Below are positions 1,872 to 10,616 of a stretch of 21,924 nucleotides of DNA, piece by piece. Numbering within the stretch: the stretch's first letter is position 1; every line of letters starts with the position of its first letter. Where the stretch lies: the IMG/VR virus record IMGVR_UViG_2609459833_000005, positions 1-21,924 of that record, one strand, 5' to 3'. The notes below the pieces were generated by a model. That model did not search any database, was not told the DNA's origin, and saw only the letters and a list, made by a program, of their open reading frames with translations. The position numbers and the translations under genes were made by a program. Source of the stretch: a virus (taxonomy: Duplodnaviria; Heunggongvirae; Uroviricota; Caudoviricetes).

Positions 1872-2662
1872 TTAACGTCCCCTGTGTTACCTTTCGTTTT
1901 ATCACGAGCAATAAGCTGGCTGGCAATAACCATCACCAGCGACAGCACCAGTAATATGGTTGCCAGCGCGTTAACTTCCGGCGATACGCCGACTTTGACC
2001 ATCGAATAAATTTTTAACGGCAGAATTTCATAACTTGGTCCGGTGACGAACGAAGAAACTACCACATCGTCCATCGACAGGGTAAAGCTTAACACCCAGC
2101 CCGCCGCCACCGCTGGCATTGCCAGTGGCAGAATGATTTTTCGCAGAATGGTAAATTCGCTGGCACCGAGATCTTTCGCCGCTTCCAGCATTCGCACGTC
2201 AAAACCTTTCAGGCGCGAATACACCGTCACCACCACAAATGGCAGGCAGAAGGTGATATGCGAGAACAGCAGCGACCAGAAGCCAAGCTGAATACCCAGC
2301 AGCATAAACAGCACCAGCAGCGAAATCGCCATCACGATATCTGGTGACATCATCACCACAAACAGCATTCCGCTAACGAACGGCTTACCACGAAAGCGAT
2401 AACGGTACAGCGCAACTGCCGTCAGTGAACCGATAAGCGTAGCAAACGTCGCCGAAAACACCGCCATTGTTAGTGAATGCTGCGCTGCCTGTAACAGGCT
2501 GTCGTTGTTCATCAGCAGGCTATACCATTTGGTGGTAAAACCCTGCCAGTTGATGCCAAAGCGCGAGCTGTTAAAGGAGTTCACAATCAAAATAATGATT
2601 GGGATATACAGGTACGCGTAGATAGCGGTCATAAAACCGCCGCGAAGCAGTCGACCGATCAT
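1868..2662 (-). CDS. potC: Spermidine/putrescine ABC transporter permease PotC
   Basis: 264-aa polytopic membrane protein MIGRLLRGGFMTAIYAYLYIPIIILIVNSF...; ABC permease EAA-like loop (EAAKDLGAS). Confidence 0.95.
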   Translation of the reverse strand: MIGRLLRGGFMTAIYAYLYIPIIILIVNSFNSSRFGINWQGFTTKWYSLLMNNDSLLQAAQHSLTMAVFSATFATLIGSLTAVALYRYRFRGKPFVSGMLFVVMMSPDIVMAISLLVLFMLLGIQLGFWSLLFSHITFCLPFVVVTVYSRLKGFDVRMLEAAKDLGASEFTILRKIILPLAMPAVAAGWVLSFTLSMDDVVVSSFVTGPSYEILPLKIYSMVKVGVSPEVNALATILLVLSLVMVIASQLIARDKTKGNTGDVK

Positions 2663-2828
2663 TCGAGTTCCACCTTCTTATTCATAAGGTGGAGCACTTT
2701 CAGGATTTTGAATTTATTCAATTTTTTCCTTTCTCCAAAATCTCTCCAAAACTTTTCCCCAAAACAAGGCCACGCATTTTACAACACTTTTTTCCTGAGA
2801 TGGTGACGGATATTCCATATGGTGTTTG
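2663..2828. other. Prophage left attachment region (attL) between potC start and integrase 3' end; site of potB displacement
   Basis: potB, which should lie directly upstream of potC, is missing; phage int begins here. Region holds direct repeats tctccaaaa (2732-2740, 2743-2751) and ccccaaaa (2757-2764) and an inverted repeat ccacctt...aaggtgg (2671-2693). Exact core not determinable without attR. Confidence 0.5.
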
Positions 2829-3947
2829 TCAAATAACCAACTTAACCCATTCCTGACCTCGAGTATCGTTATAGCGATCGGTGGTAGCCTGGACTTTATG
2901 TCCCAGTAATGTTTTTGTATCGACACCCTGTGCGCGGTACAACCGTTCTGACAGGGAGCGTTGTTCATGAAATGTTGGCGGTGTTTTTCCTGCTGGTGGA
3001 ATTATTCCAGCCAGATCTCGCGCTTTGGCGAAGTAATCGCTCAGGTTGTCTTTACTCATCGGTTTTGGTTGTTTCTGGTGCCTACTATGGATTAGGTATG
3101 GACTCAACATTCTGTCCCTGCATCCATCAATAACTTCTTTTAACGATACCCCAATTTCATCGCATCGTAGCGTAAGAGGTAAGGCCAGACGCATTCCGGT
3201 TTTTCCTTGGGTTATATGTAGATGTCCATTCCATACATCTGAAAAACGCATGTGGCAAATGTCATCACGGCGCTGACCAGTAACAATCGCAAGAAGCATT
3301 GCGTTACGGATAAAGTGTTTTTCTGGCGTTGCATTATAAATTTTTTGCCAGTCTTCCAGGGTGAGTCTGGATCTGGTCACTTTAGGGATCGGTTTACGGG
3401 TAGCCTCCGGAGGATTCCATCCAGGAGGAACTTCTCCCGCATGCTGTGCTTCTTTATAAATATCAACCCATAATCCGCGATTTACTCTTGCTGTGCTGAC
3501 CATGTCTTTATCCATCCACTCGTCCAGTATTAATGCAAAGTCTCTTACCTCCAGTTCTTTCAATGGGTGGTTTCCCAGGCGGGAAACCAGGTATGCAGCC
3601 ATTCGCACTTTTTCTTTGTGGGTTGTAGCTGCAATGTCTCCATTTTTCAGTCGCGAATCCTGTATTTTCAGATATCGATCAACCCATGCCTTTAATCTGA
3701 TACCCCGACGTTTTGTTGCTGATGGACTTTCATCAATTTTGCGCATGAAATATTCTGCTTCTGCTGCAGCTATTCGCTGATTGGCTGTTGCAGCGATTTT
3801 TTCTGCCTTGACTTTGTCTGTCCCAAGTCCGTGAAATTTTCCAGTCACAGGATTTTTATACTGGTAGTAAACCTTGCCAGTTCTGCGATCAAACTTTTCG
3901 TAAAGAGCTGCTACGTCAGTACTGTTTTTTCGTGGCCTCGGTGACAT
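2829..3947 (-). CDS. int: Phage integrase, tyrosine recombinase
   Basis: 372-aa ORF adjacent to att; C-terminal catalytic-type residues (…GQRRDDICHMRF…, …LLGHKVQATTDRYNDTRG…) typical of lambda-family integrases. Confidence 0.9.
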   Translation of the reverse strand: MSPRPRKNSTDVAALYEKFDRRTGKVYYQYKNPVTGKFHGLGTDKVKAEKIAATANQRIAAAEAEYFMRKIDESPSATKRRGIRLKAWVDRYLKIQDSRLKNGDIAATTHKEKVRMAAYLVSRLGNHPLKELEVRDFALILDEWMDKDMVSTARVNRGLWVDIYKEAQHAGEVPPGWNPPEATRKPIPKVTRSRLTLEDWQKIYNATPEKHFIRNAMLLAIVTGQRRDDICHMRFSDVWNGHLHITQGKTGMRLALPLTLRCDEIGVSLKEVIDGCRDRMLSPYLIHSRHQKQPKPMSKDNLSDYFAKARDLAGIIPPAGKTPPTFHEQRSLSERLYRAQGVDTKTLLGHKVQATTDRYNDTRGQEWVKLVI

Positions 3948-4194
3948 GGGTTAAAATCTCCTTCAGTGCGTCATCATCGCCAGTATGAATTTCCGGCGCA
4001 ATTCCAGCTTCACCCGGTCCAACAAAGACTGCGCGGCGATCTATTAGCCAGCGACCACGAATTTTTTGTGGTCTTGGTACGATGTATCCAAGTTTTCCGT
4101 ATTTCACCAGGGTAGTGTTTGTTATTGGGAGACTGAACCGCTTAGGTTTCCACTCGTCGAGCGTAATCAGGTACTGTTCGCTCATGACCATCAC
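3916..4194 (-). CDS. xis: Excisionase (Xis-like winged-helix protein); start ambiguous (GTG 4194, ATG 4191 or ATG 4185)
   Basis: N-terminus SEQYLITLDEWKPKRFSLP resembles lambda Xis MYLTLQEWNARQRRPRSLETV; lies directly upstream of and overlapping int. Confidence 0.6.
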   Translation of the reverse strand: MMVMSEQYLITLDEWKPKRFSLPITNTTLVKYGKLGYIVPRPQKIRGRWLIDRRAVFVGPGEAGIAPEIHTGDDDALKEILTHVTEATKKQY

Positions 4195-4246
4195 TCCGGA
4201 ACGCGCCAGTTGCAGAATACCAACTACAACCGGCGACGGTTGAACA

Positions 4247-6685
4247 TTAAAAATCAGCCTGACTCGGGATCAGTTTTTGCCAGATAACTGAAACGTATTT
4301 TGCCTGGTAACGGGCGTCATCAAGTGCATTATGGCGCTCACCTTCGAATGGAATAGCCGTTCTGGCATCGAAGTCTATGGCTTTCCCCAGCTCAACGATT
4401 GTGCGTACATCGCGATCGTTGTAGTAACGCCACGGGCAGGGGATCCCCTGCCGTTCGTATGAACGGCGCAAAATCGTGTTTTCGAAGTTGGCTCCATTTC
4501 CCCAGACCTGAACAAAAAATTCACCGGAGTTTTCGTCGATAAATTCCCGCAATTGTAACAGTGCATCATCTAACGGGATTTCATCGGTCATAATGGCAGA
4601 CTGCGCTTCACGTGATTGCTTCAGCCACCTTTTAATGACGTCACGATCAATGACTCCGCCAGCAGTTTCCAGATCGATAGTCTTACTAAATTCCGGTCCC
4701 ATATCTCCGGTTTGCGGATCGAAAAATATTGCATCTATTGAGATAATCGGGGCATCAGGATTTTTGCCCATTGTTTCAAGGTCAATCATCAGATGGTGCC
4801 ACAACCTGCTGGTGGATGTGCTTTTACGATGACCGTTCACCTTAATTAAGGGATTTGCTGTCTCGCCTATTTCATTATTGTCATTGGCATGTTGATCGCC
4901 TTCGGTGCACTCCTTGTTCGGGAGTCCGGCACTTTCTATTTCCTCTGGATCTTTTTCCCGGGCTTCATCCTGGCTTTCTTCGTTGAATGTCTCCTGGTAG
5001 GTTGCGTCACCCATCACTGCGCCACAATCAGGGCAGTTACCACCACCAGTCTGATTGCATGCGGTACAAACTTTTTCCTCTTCCTGTTGCACGACTGGTT
5101 CAGGTTGTTTCGTTTCTGGCTCGTTTTGTAACGCATTTGGGCTGTTTTGTTCCGCTTTCTGGTCGTTCTGTTCCGATTCTTGCTGGTTCTGGTTTACAGA
5201 ATCGCGGGTTTCAATCCCCTTTACCCATTTCGGATCATTCGGGTCGCTAATCCCTGCAACAAATTCTCCGCGAGAGGCAGCAAGCAACTTATCGGCGTCA
5301 GGCTGGCTGATATTGGCTGCCTGCATAATTTTGTTTACTTCGTCAGCGGTAACTTTTACCTGTGACTTGTCATCCAGCGGCTGCGGGTCCTGATGATGTT
5401 CAACTGTATCCGCTGCCATTGTTTCAGCCGTTGCCTGTTCATCTGCCATTGCGCCAGATGGTTGCGGGTTATCTTCATCATTTTTTTCTTCTTCTGTTTT
5501 GCACTCAGCAGCCAGTCCGCCGTTAATTTCTTCCAGGATATCTTTTTCCGGTGTATGCCGGGCAGCCATGAGCGTTTCAGCTGTGGGATTCTCGTGATCA
5601 GTTTCTGTCAGGTTGGCATTGATATACCCCTGAAGGCGCCCCGGGTAGTGATAAAACTCAGGGTGGGCGCTTCGGATAAGTGCAAAAATAGCTGCGCGGG
5701 AATAGTCCAGGATACCAGGGGTTGCGCGAAGTGCTGCGGACCATTCCCTGAACGGACTTTCTTTTTTCAGGACGATTTCTTTTGCGCGACGATAAACGCT
5801 GCCCGGAATTTCATAAATATTAAAATCCATCGGAAGTGTGGCTGCTGCAATCTCCACATCCAGCGCATCGAAGGTGTGTACTAAATTCGGATTGCGATCG
5901 GTTTTGTTCCCGCCACCGGCATTTGCACCGGAAGCCGTACGGGTGATACGCGAAACACGATTTCCTTTCATCCACTCTTTTGTCAGCAGACCCCGATCAG
6001 TGTAATCAGCGTCCAGGTATGCCTCGAAAAAAGCAGTTATCAGTCCCAGGTCTGAATTACCGGGATTAGGGAAAACTTTGTCAGTGTCGCGTACCAGTTT
6101 GTGAAGGTCGCGAATCTCCAGCGGGTCGAGCAGCTTTGTTTTGTGAGAAATGGCCAGGGCAGTAACAGCCGGCAGTTCTTCCGCCCGTGCTATATGTAAT
6201 GCCTGAAGTTCTTCCCGTGCAACGTGCGTTACTGGTTTTTCGCTGCTGTGTTGCGCAAGCCAGCGAATGGGCAGCTCCTGACCAGAAACCGGCAGGAGCA
6301 TATTCTCCTCAATCTCCGTCATGTCTTCGCCGTTGACGTTGGTATTGTCAGTACTGGCTGGTTTCTCCTGCACGGAGGGAGAGGGCGCGATAAATACCAT
6401 TGTAATGCCATCTTCCCCGCCTTTTTCGTATCGGTTGCAGAATTCGGTATCAAACACGCCTTCAGGTGGAAGGTCATTCACAACGGGTAAATGGACGCGA
6501 ACGGGTTTTTTAAAGTCGTCTTCATCATAATCGTTGTCATCCATTGCGGTAATGCAGCGGGAGATGGCAACAGATAATTTTTTTGCTGTAGTCCAGTAAA
6601 AACCACCTTTAATTCCCAGACGTTTTCTGACTTTGTCATTTTTTGCTTCGCAATATAGCGCAAATTCTTCTTTATCAGTGCTCAT
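4247..6685 (-). CDS. Exodeoxyribonuclease VIII-like prophage protein with C-terminal DEDDh (DnaQ-like) 3'-5' exonuclease domain
   Basis: 812-aa ORF; C-terminus has MIDLETMG (Exo I D-x-E) and [10 protein letters not shown] (Exo III with His); internal zinc ribbon [16 protein letters not shown]; long acidic low-complexity linker. Position matches the early-left recombination gene of lambdoid prophages. Confidence 0.6.
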
Positions 6686-6777
6686 TGATAAACCTCATTA
6701 CAGATTTAAGGGTGAACAAATCCCTGCCATTGCTGGCATTTTTAATCCGTTGGTATGGTGTTAATATGGCTGGAGGG

Positions 6778-6966
6778 TTATCCAGCCGGTGTTTCGTTAT
6801 TCAGGTACAGCGATACTTTTTTTACCGGGAGGCATTCACCAGAAATTTTTTGCTCGTCTCTTGCCTGGAGGCAGGATTCTTTACTGGCATAAATTCCGGT
6901 AATCACATTCTGTGATTCACCCGTTATAAGAAAAACCGTCATCATCAGTGCAAATGCTGAAGTCAT
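6778..6966 (-). CDS. Small hypothetical protein, positional analogue of Qin YdfD
   Basis: 62-aa ORF overlapping the dicB-like stop (ATGA overlap); hydrophobic N-terminus MTSAFALMMTVFLITG. Assignment by synteny only. Confidence 0.4.
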   Translation of the reverse strand: MTSAFALMMTVFLITGESQNVITGIYASKESCLQARDEQKISGECLPVKKVSLYLNNETPAG

Positions 6967-7151
6967 TGACGCTCTCCGAAAATACCAAGTTCAAGAAGAG
7001 CAATTCGGGAAAGTATGGAATTATCATTGAGCAGATAAGGCTCATATTTCCTCATATTAATGGCATCTTCAGTAAACTCCCGGTTACTGAGCAGAACACC
7101 AATATCAAAACAACCTTCAGACGTATTAACGTTTGGTAATAACGTTTCCAT
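6963..7151 (-). CDS. dicB: DicB-like cell division inhibitor (Kil-type)
   Basis: 62-aa ORF METLLPNVNTSEGCFDIGVLLSNREFTEDAIN... closely matches the remembered N-terminal half of E. coli DicB (MKTLLPNVNTSEGCFEIG...TEDAINKRK); same length. Confidence 0.7.
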   Translation of the reverse strand: METLLPNVNTSEGCFDIGVLLSNREFTEDAINMRKYEPYLLNDNSILSRIALLELGIFGERQ

Positions 7152-7329
7152 TATCGCGTCCTCAACAATGAATTTTGTGATGCAGTGCCTGGTGCCTCCA
7201 GGTGACGTTAACCAGTTAACAATTAACGCCGGGTTAGTTGATGCTCGTTACGCCAGTAAAAGACCGCCTTACTGCTTTAACTGTTCCGCGTGCGCATAGC
7301 CGCATTCACCGCATCACAAAATTCACTTT

Positions 7330-7385
7330 AAAAAGGGTGGCAGAGCAGTCACGGAGTAGAACTGATGCCACCAAATACTACACAT
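7330..7385 (-). ncRNA. dicF: DicF-like small RNA (ftsZ-targeting sRNA of Qin-type prophages) ending in an intrinsic terminator
   Basis: Minus strand reads uuugguggcaucaguucuacuccgugacugcucugccacccuuuuu: stem GGUGGCA/UGCCACC plus U-run, nearly identical to remembered DicF; sits about 180 nt upstream of dicB-like gene as in Qin. Ends approximate. Confidence 0.55.
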
Positions 7386-7685
7386 GGGTATTGTGGCGGG
7401 GCTGTCACTTAAGCGTATGGTCAACCTGACGACCCGGTGCATTTTCTGGAGCAATGGAGGAAGCCCCAGCCATACTTACCGCCGCGCCATTTCGCGGACT
7501 GCCACAACCGGAAGTGCACGGTCGAAGAAATTTAACGACAAGCTTTATATGCAAAGGAATCTCGCCGTGCGCTTTCGTGTTGTGTGCCTGCTTTTAACCA
7601 CGTCAGGCGAGGTGGTTTCCGTCATTCCCCAATAACAGGAAATCTGTATAATCTGGATATCCCCAACAACAGGAAGGTGTTTTAT

Positions 7686-7844
7686 ATGGTGGTTCAAAAG
7701 AATTGTTCAGGTACTGGTAAGCCTGCGGACAGGGCGGACATTCCGAATACCAGGAAACATATACCTGAGAAAAACATTCGACCAAAACCATCTCCAGCTC
7801 CTTCAGAGGAGAGGGGGAACAGCAACAATCAAACAAGCAGGTGA
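7686..7844 (+). CDS. Possible 52-aa hydrophilic Pro/Lys/Arg-rich small protein immediately upstream of the 2-TM gene
   Basis: ATG at 7686 preceded by SD aggaagg (7671-7677, 8-nt spacer); stop 7 nt before the next start. Low-complexity product, coding status uncertain. Confidence 0.3.
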   Translation: MVVQKNCSGTGKPADRADIPNTRKHIPEKNIRPKPSPAPSEERGNSNNQTSR

Positions 7845-7850
7845 TGATAT

Positions 7851-8297
7851 ATGGACCGGGATGATATTCTTGACAGGGTTTTATATGGTTATTTTCTTGA
7901 ACAACTATTCTCTGTAGCGACTGGTCGTCTCGATAAACTTTTCTCAGTGGTGAGTATTATCCTCGGTTCATCTGTCATTGGTGGATTTATTCCTGAAGTT
8001 TCTGGAGTTCTCATTGTTGTGATAGCAACCGTTCAAACGATTTACGGATTCGGACAAAAGTCAGGTAACGCAATGAGAAAATCCGCAGAATATCTGCAGC
8101 TTTATGATGATGCAGAAAAATATTCCGATTCGGAATTGAAAATGCAGTTAAAGCTCCTGGAAAAAACAGATGATAATATTTGGTCGTCGCTTAAAGATAT
8201 CGCAATCTTAAAAACCCAGATCAAAATAGGAATCTCCGTAGAACAACAAGAGAAACTGTCTGCAAAATCCAAATTGATGCGATTCCTTTGTGGTTAG
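7851..8297 (+). CDS. Hypothetical two-transmembrane-helix membrane protein (candidate superinfection-exclusion or abortive-infection moron)
   Basis: 148-aa ORF in AT-rich DNA; SD aggtga 7 nt upstream; two adjacent hydrophobic helices (LFSVVSIILGSSVIGGFIPEV, SGVLIVVIATVQTIYGFG) then a charged helical C-terminal domain. Opposite strand to all flanking early genes. Confidence 0.7.
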   Translation: MDRDDILDRVLYGYFLEQLFSVATGRLDKLFSVVSIILGSSVIGGFIPEVSGVLIVVIATVQTIYGFGQKSGNAMRKSAEYLQLYDDAEKYSDSELKMQLKLLEKTDDNIWSSLKDIAILKTQIKIGISVEQQEKLSAKSKLMRFLCG

Positions 8298-8395
8298 GAA
8301 TACCCAGATTGTTAAAGAGCATGCCGAATGCTTACCCGTGTCCGGCGAACGTATTCCACTTCGCCTGTGGAGAACTCTTTAATTACTAACCTTCA

Positions 8396-8635
8396 TCAGT
8401 CAGAGTTTCTTGCTAACCAGCGACGCGCGCCAGCTTCCGTTTTAAACGTTTTGCTTCTGGTATACGTCATCGCGGTAAACGTGCCGTCCAGGTTGGGGAA
8501 TACTCCACATACCAGAGATTCGTTGTTGCCAAGCTCGATAGTATCCATGCTGACCTCATTTCCCCTTAACGCCGGGGTAGCGGAACTAAAAACCTGCTGC
8601 GCTGTTATACAAAGTGTTCCCGCCGTCATGTTCAT
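8396..8635 (-). CDS. Hypothetical early protein, first ORF of the leftward operon
   Basis: 79-aa ORF directly downstream of the leftward operator/promoter region; basic C-terminus TRSKTFKTEAGARRWLARNSD. Overlapping plus-strand ORF 8328-8657 judged less protein-like. Confidence 0.45.
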   Translation of the reverse strand: MNMTAGTLCITAQQVFSSATPALRGNEVSMDTIELGNNESLVCGVFPNLDGTFTAMTYTRSKTFKTEAGARRWLARNSD

Positions 8636-8728
8636 ACGCCTCGGGCTGGCTACTTAACCCCTGACCACTGCCGGGTAACTCGAAGTATTGCCCTGCATTC
8701 TGTGGGGAGGGTGGGTGATGAATAAACA

Positions 8729-8768
8729 ATAGCACTGCTATTTTATTCTGTTAAATAGTAATGCTATT
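8729..8768 (-). promoter_or_regulatory. Leftward early promoter with two repressor operators (OL-like)
   Basis: 15-bp palindromes AATAGCACTGCTATT (8729-8743) and AATAGTAATGCTATT (8754-8768), centres 25 bp apart. On the minus strand these overlap a -35-like TTTAAC and -10-like TATTGT reading toward 8635. Confidence 0.65.
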
Positions 8769-8784
8769 GTTTTTTGGAGGTAAG

Positions 8785-8807
8785 AAAAAAAAACCACCCG
8801 AAGGTGG
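8785..8807 (-). terminator. Rho-independent terminator after parE
   Basis: Hairpin ccacc-cgaa-ggtgg (8794-8807) followed on the minus strand by a 9-U run (8785-8793). Confidence 0.75.
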
Positions 8808-8823
8808 TTGTTGGTAGGAATGA

Positions 8824-9114
8824 TTAACAGCTTTTGTTTGGATACTGCCTTCGTGAGTGAACTACATTTACGATCTCGATGTTAGATGCTGTTACTCGGT
8901 AAAGTATTATGTAGTTAGGATGGGTCACTATCTCACGAAGGCCTAGAGCTCTTTCGCTTGGTGGATACAGGTAAGGGTGTTCAGTAAGTGACAAAACTGA
9001 TGTTTCAATGCGTATTTTTAGTCTACGTGCAGCGGGAGGGTTTTCCTTGGCAATATAGGCTACGATCTGACGCAAATCATCACGCGCAGAAGGTAGCCAT
9101 AAAATGGGCAGCAT
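8824..9114 (-). CDS. parE: ParE/RelE-superfamily type II toxin
   Basis: 96-aa ORF with ParE-like motifs (ARDDLRQIVAYIAKENPPAARRL, YIILYRV, IEIVNVVHSRR); start overlaps the stop of the upstream 63-aa ORF. Confidence 0.8.
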   Translation of the reverse strand: MLPILWLPSARDDLRQIVAYIAKENPPAARRLKIRIETSVLSLTEHPYLYPPSERALGLREIVTHPNYIILYRVTASNIEIVNVVHSRRQYPNKSC

Positions 9115-9305
9115 TACTCACTCCTGTTCGTCGAAGCTATTTGCGCAATAAGGTTTTCCATTTCAGCCATTACTTCGTCATGCGGAATTGCAGGACGGGG
9201 GTCTGCGAGGCTTGCTGCCACTTTGGTGCGTAACCATTCGTTATAGCTGTTTTCTTGTTCGATTGTTTCAAATTCTGAAATTATCGGGGAAAGGACTGTA
9301 CTCAT
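9114..9305 (-). CDS. Small antitoxin partner of ParE (PaaA-like, 63 aa)
   Basis: 63-aa acidic ORF with strong SD gaggagg 8 nt upstream; translationally coupled to parE. Size and context match the PaaA antitoxins of three-component PaaR-PaaA-ParE systems described in E. coli O157 prophages; family assignment from memory. Confidence 0.6.
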   Translation of the reverse strand: MSTVLSPIISEFETIEQENSYNEWLRTKVAASLADPRPAIPHDEVMAEMENLIAQIASTNRSE

Positions 9306-9322
9306 GTTCTAACCTCCTCAGA

Positions 9323-9823
9323 TTAGGCGCGAAGACCTTTTTGCGCCTCTAGCCACCGCGCAACGGTTTCTTCAATTGATTCTTTTTTCTCCTTCATTTC
9401 CTTAAGCATTTTCTCTTTGTCTTCTTTTGGGAAAGCCCTGAACGTCTGGATCAAATCTCGCTCTATAGGTTCTATATTAAACGGAAGTTCGTTTTCCGAT
9501 TGTTCCATCTCTGCGGGTAAAGCGACAACATTATCCTGCTGCAGTTCTTGGGGGTACATCCTTACAATTCGTAACAAGTCTGCCATATCTGGTCTAATTG
9601 ACTCAGGCGGAACTTGTAGCAACCCAGCGAACTTGATAACAGCCTCTAGATTTAAAGGTGTCTGACCATTTAGATAATGGCTTACTGCCCCTTGTGTCGA
9701 AAAACCCAGAATTTCTGCCGCACGCTCTTGGGTTAACCCAAGTTGAGTTTTTTTCGTCGTCCAGATTTCTTTCAGTCTCTGGGCGGCTTGCAGGTCGATC
9801 TCTGACAGGGGTTTTCTTTTCAT
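9323..9823 (-). CDS. Prophage repressor / transcriptional regulator, HTH XRE-family (PaaR- or DicA-like), no autocleavage domain
   Basis: 166-aa ORF; N-terminal HTH (LGLTQERAAEILGFSTQGAVSHYLNG); C-terminus charged and helical with no S24 peptidase Ser/Lys or Ala-Gly motifs; divergent from the cro-like gene across an operator-bearing intergenic region. Confidence 0.75.
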   Translation of the reverse strand: MKRKPLSEIDLQAAQRLKEIWTTKKTQLGLTQERAAEILGFSTQGAVSHYLNGQTPLNLEAVIKFAGLLQVPPESIRPDMADLLRIVRMYPQELQQDNVVALPAEMEQSENELPFNIEPIERDLIQTFRAFPKEDKEKMLKEMKEKKESIEETVARWLEAQKGLRA

Positions 9824-9858
9824 ACCTTCAATTCTAATAAGATTATTAATCTCTTTGA

Positions 9859-9898
9859 AATAGCAGTGCTATTTACTTTTAAAAATAACAATGCTATT
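9859..9898 (+). promoter_or_regulatory. Rightward early promoter with two repressor operators (OR-like), shared with the divergent repressor promoter
   Basis: 15-bp palindromes AATAGCAGTGCTATT (9859-9873) and AATAACAATGCTATT (9884-9898), centres 25 bp apart, overlapping -35-like TTTACT (9872-9877) and -10-like TATTAA (9895-9900); same architecture as the OL region. Confidence 0.7.
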
Positions 9899-9930
9899 AA
9901 TATTCATGGTCACATAACATGAGGTGAACA

Positions 9931-10194
9931 ATGAATCTTGGAGAATATTTGCATCATTCCCGTATAACCCAGAAAGATTTTGCTGAAATTGTTGGGGTAA
10001 CCCAAGGGATGGTAAGCCATGTTATTACTGGACGGGCGAAACTTACGGGGGGGAAAGTTTTACGCTGGTGTGAAGCAACAGGGTGGGTAGTGACCCCGCA
10101 CGAGATTGATAGCAGTACTTACCCCAACCCAACCGATGGCATACCTGTTGACTATCAGGCTAACACACAACCCGCGCTGGGAGTTGATTCATGA
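9931..10194 (+). CDS. Cro-like HTH regulator
   Basis: 87-aa ORF with HTH (ITQKDFAEIVGVTQGMVSHVITG), first gene transcribed rightward from the operator region; SD gaggtga upstream. Confidence 0.75.
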   Translation: MNLGEYLHHSRITQKDFAEIVGVTQGMVSHVITGRAKLTGGKVLRWCEATGWVVTPHEIDSSTYPNPTDGIPVDYQANTQPALGVDS

Positions 10195-10616
10195 AAATCA
10201 AGCATGAACACATCCGCATGGCGATGAATGTCTGGGCGCATCCGGACGGCGAAAAAGTACCGGCTGCGAAAATTACCAAAGCGTATTTCGAGCTGGGAAT
10301 GACGTTCCCGGAACTGTATGACGACAGCCATCCGGAAGCCCTGGCCCGTAATACCCAGAAAATTTTCCGTTGGCTGGATAAAGACACCCCTGATGCTGTT
10401 GAAAAAATGCAGGCTCTGTTACCGGCGATCGAAAAGGCGATGCCGCCTTTGCTGGTGGCCCGTATGCGCAGTCACAGCTCTGAATATTACCGTGAGATCG
10501 TCGAACGGAGGGATCGGCTGGGGAAAGATGTGGATGATTTTGTCGCAGCGGCGATCGCCTGGGGCACCCTGACTAACAGTGGTGGTCAGCCTGGTAATGC
10601 TGTTGTCGTGCATTGA
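10191..10616 (+). CDS. YdaT-like (CII-like) protein
   Basis: 141-aa ORF beginning MKIKHEHI and ending ...AVVVH, resembling remembered Rac YdaT; located directly after cro as in Rac (racR-ydaS-ydaT). Confidence 0.5.
   Translation: MKIKHEHIRMAMNVWAHPDGEKVPAAKITKAYFELGMTFPELYDDSHPEALARNTQKIFRWLDKDTPDAVEKMQALLPAIEKAMPPLLVARMRSHSSEYYREIVERRDRLGKDVDDFVAAAIAWGTLTNSGGQPGNAVVVH

Follow-up and report, generated by a model that had tools for sequence, protein, structure and literature searches.

A lambdoid prophage protein predicted to combine the N-terminal region of RecE with a DEDDh-type 3'-5' exonuclease domain, encoded without an annealase partner

The gene at positions 4247–6685 (minus strand) of the virus record IMGVR_UViG_2609459833_000005 (Caudoviricetes; the whole stretch of 21,924 nucleotides is referred to as the window) was analysed by sequence comparison and structure prediction. 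Judged by its sequence, the product is a domain-swap chimera, in which the non-catalytic N-terminal part of RecE (exonuclease VIII of the Rac prophage, which has RecT as partner) is retained and the 5'-3' PD-(D/E)xK nuclease of that enzyme is replaced by a DEDDh exonuclease domain with the opposite predicted polarity; a recT gene is not present. The open reading frame (ORF) runs from ATG to stop, and the protein is identical to RefSeq WP_032270684.1, named 'exonuclease'. The gene is intact, and we infer that it is a working part of the leftward early operon in a lambdoid prophage of the Qin/Tritos type at potC. It is among the commonest prophage genes of Escherichia coli, including enterohaemorrhagic strains, and is often mislabelled 'exodeoxyribonuclease VIII'; for annotation purposes the protein is not RecE but a predicted 3'-5' DEDDh exonuclease with a RecE-type N-terminal region. 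The gene type has already been catalogued, and for the phage class as such the lack of a partner has been explained in print (PMC12315714, Genome Res 2025). The features of the gene, from the start codon to the stop codon, are as follows.

4247–6685, minus strand: complete gene of 812 codons plus stop, chimera of a RecE N-terminal region and a predicted DEDDh exonuclease
6386–6685, minus strand: alpha/beta N-terminal domain, residues 1–100 (AlphaFold predicted local distance difference test, pLDDT, 85–97)
5507–6328, minus strand: helical core, residues 120–393 (pLDDT ∼91), common to RecE and the fusion proteins of other genera
5075–5506, minus strand: acidic, predicted disordered region, residues 394–537
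5225–5287, minus strand: conserved short peptide motif within the disordered region, residues 467–487 (local pLDDT 71–83)
5015–5074, minus strand: four-cysteine knuckle C540-x2-C543-x7-C551-x2-C554, residues 538–557 (pLDDT ∼73)
4799–5014, minus strand: acidic disordered linker, residues 558–629
4262–4798, minus strand: predicted DEDDh 3'-5' exonuclease domain of the Rv2179c/DexA type, residues 630–808 (D635, E637, E735, H785, D790)

The presence of a DnaQ-type DEDDh domain at the C-terminus, proposed in an earlier note on this DNA that was made from the sequence alone, was borne out by domain and fold searches. Pfam PF16473 (Rv2179c-like) matched residues 630–802 over the full model with 205.6 bits (gathering score 27; E=6e-61). 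The only sequence matches in the PDB were two forms of T4 DexA, 8kel and the double mutant 8ken, and 8kel was also the best structural match in a Foldseek search with the model of the domain (E=3e-7), followed by RNase T, oligoribonuclease (Orn) and the DnaQ domain of Cas2-DnaQ. AlphaFold predicted an RNase H-like DnaQ fold for residues 630–808 with a pLDDT of ∼80–90. Motif I (D-x-E) is present as D635 and E637 in LMIDLETMG and motif III (H-x4-D) as H785 and D790, and DexA and PF16473 share both the fold and these motifs. When the window protein was aligned with DexA, with one lambdoid homologue of the stand-alone kind and with fusion proteins from eleven entries of other clusters, D635, H785 and D790 were invariant and E637 nearly so. 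The identity to DexA is ∼24%, and DexA is a stand-alone protein of 227 residues from a virulent phage, whereas the window domain forms the C-terminus of an 812-residue protein of a temperate phage. More similar are the DEDDh proteins encoded by stand-alone lambdoid DnaQ-type genes (53–58% identity; mEp460, and epsilon34 in PMC12315714). These are 182–250 residues long, lack the RecE-type region and in some cases lie beside Erf or Abc2, an arrangement never seen for the fusion form. Domains of the PF16473 type are common in unrelated phages (663 phage records with a match); a literature search on Rv2179c turned up no mention of phage homologues.

The remainder of the protein resembles RecE. Pfam Exonuc_VIII (PF06630) matched residues 57–189 (E=4e-33), and BLASTP against K-12 Rac RecE aligned residues 58–614 with RecE residues 50–591 at 57% identity. 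BLASTP gave no similarity to RecE residues 592–866, the PD-(D/E)xK nuclease, and there was no DUF3799 match in Pfam. The NCBIfam RecE equivalog NF007259 aligned with residues 1–614 on model positions 1–602 of 877, where the alignment ends, and the score of 877 bits stayed under the equivalog cutoff of 1269. The designation 'exonuclease VIII-like' in the earlier note is thus appropriate for the non-catalytic part (57% identity to RecE 50–591) and not for the nuclease domain, which bears no similarity to that of RecE. With an alignment of 78 relatives, residues 1–395 were modelled by AlphaFold at a mean pLDDT of 90.9. Foldseek with this N-terminal model yielded no significant match, the lowest E values being 1.2 in the PDB and 0.28 in BFVD, and a SopB/ParB-like fold for these 395 residues was rejected, the faint matches being noise. 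The first 100 residues differ between alleles: those of the window allele are of the RecE type, those of most E. coli copies of the YdfE type.

Residues 394–629 contain 52 D/E against 20 K/R and are predicted to be disordered (pLDDT <50 at 395–447, 492–537 and 560–625) save for the short conserved peptide and the cysteine knuckle; the long acidic disordered linker and the CxxC...CxxC pattern (C540, C543, C551, C554) had both been recognized before. The two CxxC pairs would provide four putative metal-binding cysteines of a zinc knuckle. This motif of 15 residues is kept in the viral loci, in Rac RecE and in 14 of 150 representatives of the clusters with a RecE-type N-terminus (RecE-N). The peptide at residues 467–487, whose consensus begins QLAAxRGE[FY], occurs in 41 of the 150 and is seen in RecE proteins, DEDDh fusions and nuclease-less relatives alike; it looks like a docking motif for some partner. 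Rac RecE therefore shares with the window protein the helical core, the acidic disordered region, the peptide motif and the four-cysteine knuckle. That knuckle and acidic linker were inherited from RecE had escaped the earlier note, as had Glu735 (see below), the lack of an annealase in about half of the lambdoid prophages, and the lone-nuclease, Chi-rich phage type described in 2025 (PMC12315714).

A search with residues 1–620 against 1.8 billion cluster representatives yielded 257 clusters. Among the longer RecE-N representatives, ∼16 end in a DEDDh domain, ∼20 in the RecE nuclease and 41 in neither, as determined by sequence search. A Pfam scan of these 41 showed that 23 match only Exonuc_VIII and that 2 carry a RecT domain. 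Since the RecE-N region is found joined to DEDDh, to PD-(D/E)xK or to nothing recognisable as a nuclease, its behaviour is that of an independent module. In a review the N-terminal domain of RecE is described as being without known function, and the role of the window gene could tell the purpose of this domain in a protein that is a workhorse of recombineering. The two RecT-containing proteins (best E 1e-42) may represent RecE-N::RecT fusions or merged gene calls.

The gene is widely distributed and mostly intact. The frame (812–860 codons) was complete in ∼70 of 80 viral loci and truncated in ∼6 of the 80. Compared with other alleles, the DEDDh domain differs at 2–8 of 427 non-synonymous sites and 4–11 of 119 synonymous sites, that is, a ratio of non-synonymous to synonymous rates (dN/dS) of ∼0.15–0.2; on the basis of these sequence comparisons, the domain is under purifying selection. 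Of 5426 complete E. coli genomes, 4044 (75%) contained DNA of the domain, in up to 7 copies per genome, and the gene is carried by the complete phages Tritos, mEp460_ev081, Evi and HannyBb. Fusion genes in the exo-xis-int layout were found in >20 other Enterobacterales species. Two main forms exist in E. coli, an 812-residue RecE-type form to which the window protein belongs (9 of 79 viral loci) and an 823-residue form (64 of 79), the first 256 residues of which are those of the K-12 pseudogene ydfE. The intact frames, the dN/dS values, the presence in 75% of E. coli genomes and >20 species, and the occurrence in Tritos speak against the suggestion that the gene is a decayed recombination module; the other option raised at the same time, that of a nuclease serving some different role, is reasonable, and its anti-defence example received no specific support from the results.

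The absence of an annealase was assessed with three different methods: (i) tblastn; (ii) Pfam censuses of ORFs; and (iii) inspection of the annotation. With RecT, lambda Bet, P22 Erf, lambda Exo, Gam, Abc2 and the RecE nuclease as queries, tblastn found none in the window, and with RecT and the RecE nuclease none in the rest of the prophage (in its SW070917 copy) or in the 80 viral loci related to it; in Rac, the positive control, RecT was recovered. A Pfam scan of all window ORFs of at least 90 amino acids revealed no annealase among the 25 families listed, and none was present in the RefSeq annotation of the entire prophage. Annealases of the Sak4 type were covered only via the Pfam census and the annotation. 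The statement that no annealase gene is adjacent and that xis follows directly was therefore correct, the excisionase gene lying ∼52 nt downstream, and the searches gave neither a canonical RecE PD-(D/E)xK domain nor a RecT gene elsewhere in the prophage.

The same picture was obtained in a cross-species survey, in which one representative genome per species was used and 80 loci with the DEDDh domain were recovered. About 30 of these, from Escherichia albertii, E. ruysiae, Enterobacter, Klebsiella, Citrobacter, Kluyvera, Pluralibacter, Buttiauxella and others, are fusions of 641–851 residues with RecE-N homology, and in almost all of them xis and int come next. Within 10 kb of the ∼30 fusion genes there was no annealase, lambda Exo, Gam or Abc2, and a Pfam census of 138 ORFs upstream of fusion genes in 18 species likewise gave no annealase. 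About 45 loci contain the stand-alone gene of 182–250 residues, 5 of them beside Erf and 1 beside Abc2. No hidden annealase came to light in the tblastn searches or in the Pfam censuses of the window ORFs and the 138 upstream ORFs. The absence of RecT is ordinary, since no annealase was reported in 134 of 275 lambdoid (pro)phages, according to the account of Bobay et al. 2013 given in PMC12315714.

In PMC12315714, 314 lambdoid phages were surveyed, and DnaQ-like 3'-5' nucleases were described in or near recombination modules (early-left regions), together with sporadic DnaQ-type genes near int and 'RecE-2' proteins without nuclease domain. A class of 68 phages has no recombination module, and a 'Tritos' type has a nuclease only, without annealase, single-stranded DNA-binding protein (SSB) or RecBCD inhibitor. 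Both the module-less and the Tritos types are rich in Chi sites, whose orientation suits RecBCD that enters at the right end; growth dependent on RecBCD, Chi and RecA was proposed for these phages. The criterion used was at least 8 sites in active orientation and few in inactive orientation, clustered in the right arm. The Chi sites in the window are located as follows.

4808–4815, plus strand: Chi site GCTGGTGG in active orientation, within the exonuclease gene at the junction of linker and DEDDh domain (codons T-S-T-S)
2992, 4808, 10451, 17304, 18925, 19242 and 21414, plus (top) strand: the seven Chi sites of this orientation
17488 and 20056, minus (bottom) strand: the two Chi sites of the opposite orientation

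The whole prophage has 8 active (top strand) and 2 inactive (bottom strand) sites, all in the 22.5 kb from int to the lysis side (right arm) and none in the structural genes. From its sequence, the prophage fits the annealase-less, Chi-rich class of PMC12315714 (class A, or class B of the Tritos type). For 22 fusion genes of other species, the 10 kb on the upstream side contained 93 active and 20 inactive sites, and Chi was absent from 3 of 4 counted stand-alone loci with Erf or Abc2 nearby. The site at 4808–4815 is kept in 75 of 76 related E. coli loci. Residues 536–630 of the window allele form a divergent mosaic patch relative to other alleles, and this patch ends at the same Chi site, as expected if Chi-stimulated exchange shapes the mosaic.

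How might such a protein function? By analogy with its solved relatives, the DEDDh domain would cut nucleotides off free 3' ends by two-metal-ion hydrolysis, and the substrate would most likely be DNA, as for T4 DexA, the closest of these relatives. The RecE-type N-terminal part would tether the nuclease to the partner or substrate that the N-terminus of RecE itself recognises. Because its predicted polarity is opposite to that of RecE, the window enzyme would be unable to produce 3' tails for annealing; such tails, which an annealase requires, are destroyed by a 3'-5' nuclease, and no RecT/Bet partner is then expected. The phage would instead grow by recombination through the host RecBCD-Chi-RecA pathway, with the exonuclease trimming 3' tails or blunting DNA ends, thereby feeding RecBCD or suppressing other pathways. 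We tentatively favour this reading, in which a tethered enzyme removes nucleotides from 3' ends of DNA in a phage that uses the RecBCD and RecA of the host, while regarding it as somewhat short of probable. The role of the gene would clarify how lambdoid phages without Red/RecET-type modules, a large class, replicate and recombine.

A number of points weigh against the proposed end-trimming role. The position of the motif-II acid is occupied by Glu735 (GANFEN) in the window allele, where the family has Asp (114 of 118 close homologues, 77 of 81 motif matches in viral loci, D119 of T4 DexA, and all other sequences of the DEDDh alignment save one apparently inactive variant), and Asp651 is found at a position of Gly or Ala. 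The combination of Glu735 and G651D is a minor allele, present in 4 of 120 close homologues and in 4 of 81 motif matches in viral loci; a Glu at this predicted metal-binding position may weaken catalysis. The founder of the family, Rv2179c, bears the name of an exoribonuclease in Pfam. Also, the usual effect of 3'-5' exonucleases on recombination is inhibitory (Lovett 2011, cited in PMC12315714), and DnaQ-type genes beside int are counted as module genes in PMC12315714 only if contiguous with other module genes. The link with Chi belongs to the phage class as a whole and is no proof that the nuclease acts together with RecBCD. Finally, the fold searches with the N-terminal region gave nothing in PDB or BFVD that would point to a partner.

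Other roles have to be considered, starting with those in which the enzyme acts in conflicts between phages and hosts. For EcD ('HREX'), a stand-alone DexA homologue of E. coli, degradation of T4 DNA and protection of cells have been reported (PMC12153337); a prophage-encoded nuclease with a DexA-like domain might likewise break down modified DNA, here that of T-even-type phages that superinfect the lysogen. Most bacterial DexA homologues were found in Escherichia, Citrobacter and Klebsiella (PMC12153337), and these are probably prophage genes of the window kind; moreover, the gene adjoins int, a common place for accessory genes. The residues for recognition of 5-hydroxymethylcytosine are, however, unmatched, W152 and D169 of DexA corresponding to Y755 and A769 in a 24% identity alignment that makes these pairs tentative, and the equivalent of DexA D90, whose loss is tied to the dimeric defensive form (no tetramer) in PMC12153337, is kept as D707. 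The best PADLOC match was partial, with E=0.03, and not meaningful; membership of a defence system was rejected on this result and on the mismatched HREX signature residues. In a promoter/terminator scan of 3800–10200, promoter-like sites were less numerous than in shuffled sequence and absent from the 92-nt gap preceding the exonuclease gene, which is weak evidence; since the gene lies inside the leftward early operon with no promoter-like site in this gap, it is probably silent in the lysogen. The gene also occurs in viable phages, and a role in defence appears improbable. The reverse possibility, counter-defence or host takeover by attack on nucleic acids of immunity systems (retron msDNA, reverse transcriptase cDNA, signalling oligonucleotides) or on RNA, has a precedent in Vibrio phages, in which a DEDDh ('RNase T/Pol III') exonuclease beside SSB and annealase genes is mutated in retron escapers (bioRxiv 10.1101/2021.05.05.442762), and would agree with the naming of the Pfam family for an exoribonuclease and with the wide occurrence of the domain in unrelated phages. 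Yet there is no direct evidence for the window protein, and the Vibrio nuclease behaves as the object sensed by the retron rather than as an established inhibitor. The strict association with RecE-type N-termini and with Chi-rich, annealase-less phages points to DNA-end metabolism instead, leaving counter-defence rather unlikely.

Persistence as a decayed remnant of a RecET-type module that lost RecT and has no function would account for E735 and D651, which lie at conserved positions in the window allele, for the IS4 between ydfD and the gene and the several pseudogenes in the SW070917 prophage, and for the truncations, both in ∼6 of the 80 viral loci and in K-12, where ydfE is a truncated sister-gene remnant. 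The C-terminal domain is, on the other hand, a different nuclease and not a degraded RecE, and the mostly intact frame, the purifying selection on the DEDDh domain and the conservation of the architecture in >20 species and complete phages make this explanation very unlikely; a non-functional remnant fits the window allele, with its E735, better than it fits the family. W686R was discarded as a sign of decay, being a common polymorphism, and only G651D and D735E are specific to the lineage of the window allele. A further role, nucleotide scavenging, would have the enzyme contribute, during the lytic phase, to the breakdown of host or damaged DNA into mononucleotides in the manner of T4 DexA, its closest solved relative by sequence and fold; the roles of DexA given in the account of PMC12153337 include scavenging of host DNA. 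No genes for degradation of host DNA are evident in the annotated prophage, and scavenging would leave both the large RecE-type N-terminal region and the link to annealase-less, Chi-rich phages unexplained. To our knowledge, lambdoid temperate phages generally have no programme for degradation of host DNA, and this role is highly improbable.

The preferred reading, an exonuclease that trims 3' tails or blunts ends for a phage using host recombination, can be extended to RecE. The N-terminal two-thirds of RecE (orphan fold, conserved peptide and zinc knuckle) might be a portable targeting module, carried on nucleases of opposite polarity or on none, and the DEDDh version might be the dedicated phage component of a third recombination strategy, in which ends are prepared for the host RecBCD-Chi-RecA pathway and not resected for an annealase of the phage. 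We consider this generalization speculative and, as a whole, doubtful; if true, the N-terminal module would also explain the long-puzzling boost to linear-linear recombineering by full-length RecE.

Positions 1 to ∼2700 of the window are host DNA (ymfA, potD, potC), and the lambdoid prophage starts at 2829. Bases 2500–9500 are 100% identical to the chromosome of E. coli SW070917, except for an IS4 that is present there and not here. The genes of the leftward early region around the exonuclease gene are as follows.

2829–3947, minus strand: integrase, lambda-type, beside potC (attachment side), from annotation
3916–4194, minus strand: excisionase (Pfam Exc), next gene downstream of the exonuclease gene
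6778–6966, minus strand: ydfD-like gene (DUF1482), directly upstream of the exonuclease gene in the same operon
6963–7151, minus strand: dicB cell-division inhibitor
7335–7386, minus strand: DicF small RNA, which marks the leftward early operon as Qin/Tritos type

Past DicF, the minus strand carries DUF1391, relBE and then a cI-type repressor (9323–9823), and the plus strand carries the rightward early genes: cro-like, YdaT, a DnaT-like replication protein, P, RusA and a Q-like antiterminator. The operon order DicF-dicB-ydfD-exo-xis-int matches both the K-12 Qin dicB operon and the complete phage Tritos; recE of Rac likewise lies in a leftward early operon near xis-int. In Tritos the exonuclease is TRITO_27, within the same gene order (cI...DicF-dicB-ydfD-exo-xis-int), and shares 65% identity over residues 270–811, that is, the mid region and the DEDDh domain; Tritos and the window prophage are both Chi-rich and without annealase. 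The Tritos protein has 823 residues, and its tblastn match to the window protein starts at residue 270, so that the N-termini differ; from the length, that of Tritos would be of the YdfE type. In K-12 Qin, ydfE occupies the same place directly after dicB-ydfD (stretch L170, 5079–5999) and is the 5' remnant of the 823-residue sister form, cut off by IS2, with no N-terminal similarity to the window gene. The possibility that ydfE is a truncated copy of the window protein itself was rejected, as BLASTP gave no similarity. In the literature on ydfE, ydfD, dicB and the exonuclease, no functional study was found.

The place of ydfD/dicB in E. coli is taken by other genes elsewhere. Directly upstream of the fusion in Klebsiella, Enterobacter, Phytobacter, Citrobacter and Kluyvera is a gene for an Rrf2-type winged-helix protein of 113–126 residues, and twelve such ORFs were found upstream in the 18 loci surveyed. 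Five of these genes are located as follows.

7934–8302 of stretch L106: Rrf2-type gene
8039–8416 of stretch L090: Rrf2-type gene
7624–7971 of stretch L152: Rrf2-type gene
7610–7948 of stretch L137: Rrf2-type gene
7559–7927 of stretch L125: Rrf2-type gene

The IS4 of SW070917 (stretch L001, 20303–21649) lies within the 92 nt that separate ydfD from the exonuclease gene and would isolate the latter from the operon promoter; the prophage of this strain also has frameshifts in portal, DUF551 and other genes. In the window, the relBE toxin-antitoxin pair is located at 8824–9305 (minus strand), between the repressor gene and the dicB operon. The plus strand encodes the sok antitoxin RNA and hokD (16033–16207), three tRNA genes downstream of the Q-like gene (20463–20711) and the small RNA STnc100 (21543–21748). 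At the far end of the prophage, just inside potB (stretch L003, 10195–16302), are genes for an autotransporter peptidase of the S6 family (SPATE-type) and for a protein that has a YadA C-terminal domain, which are probably virulence cargo.

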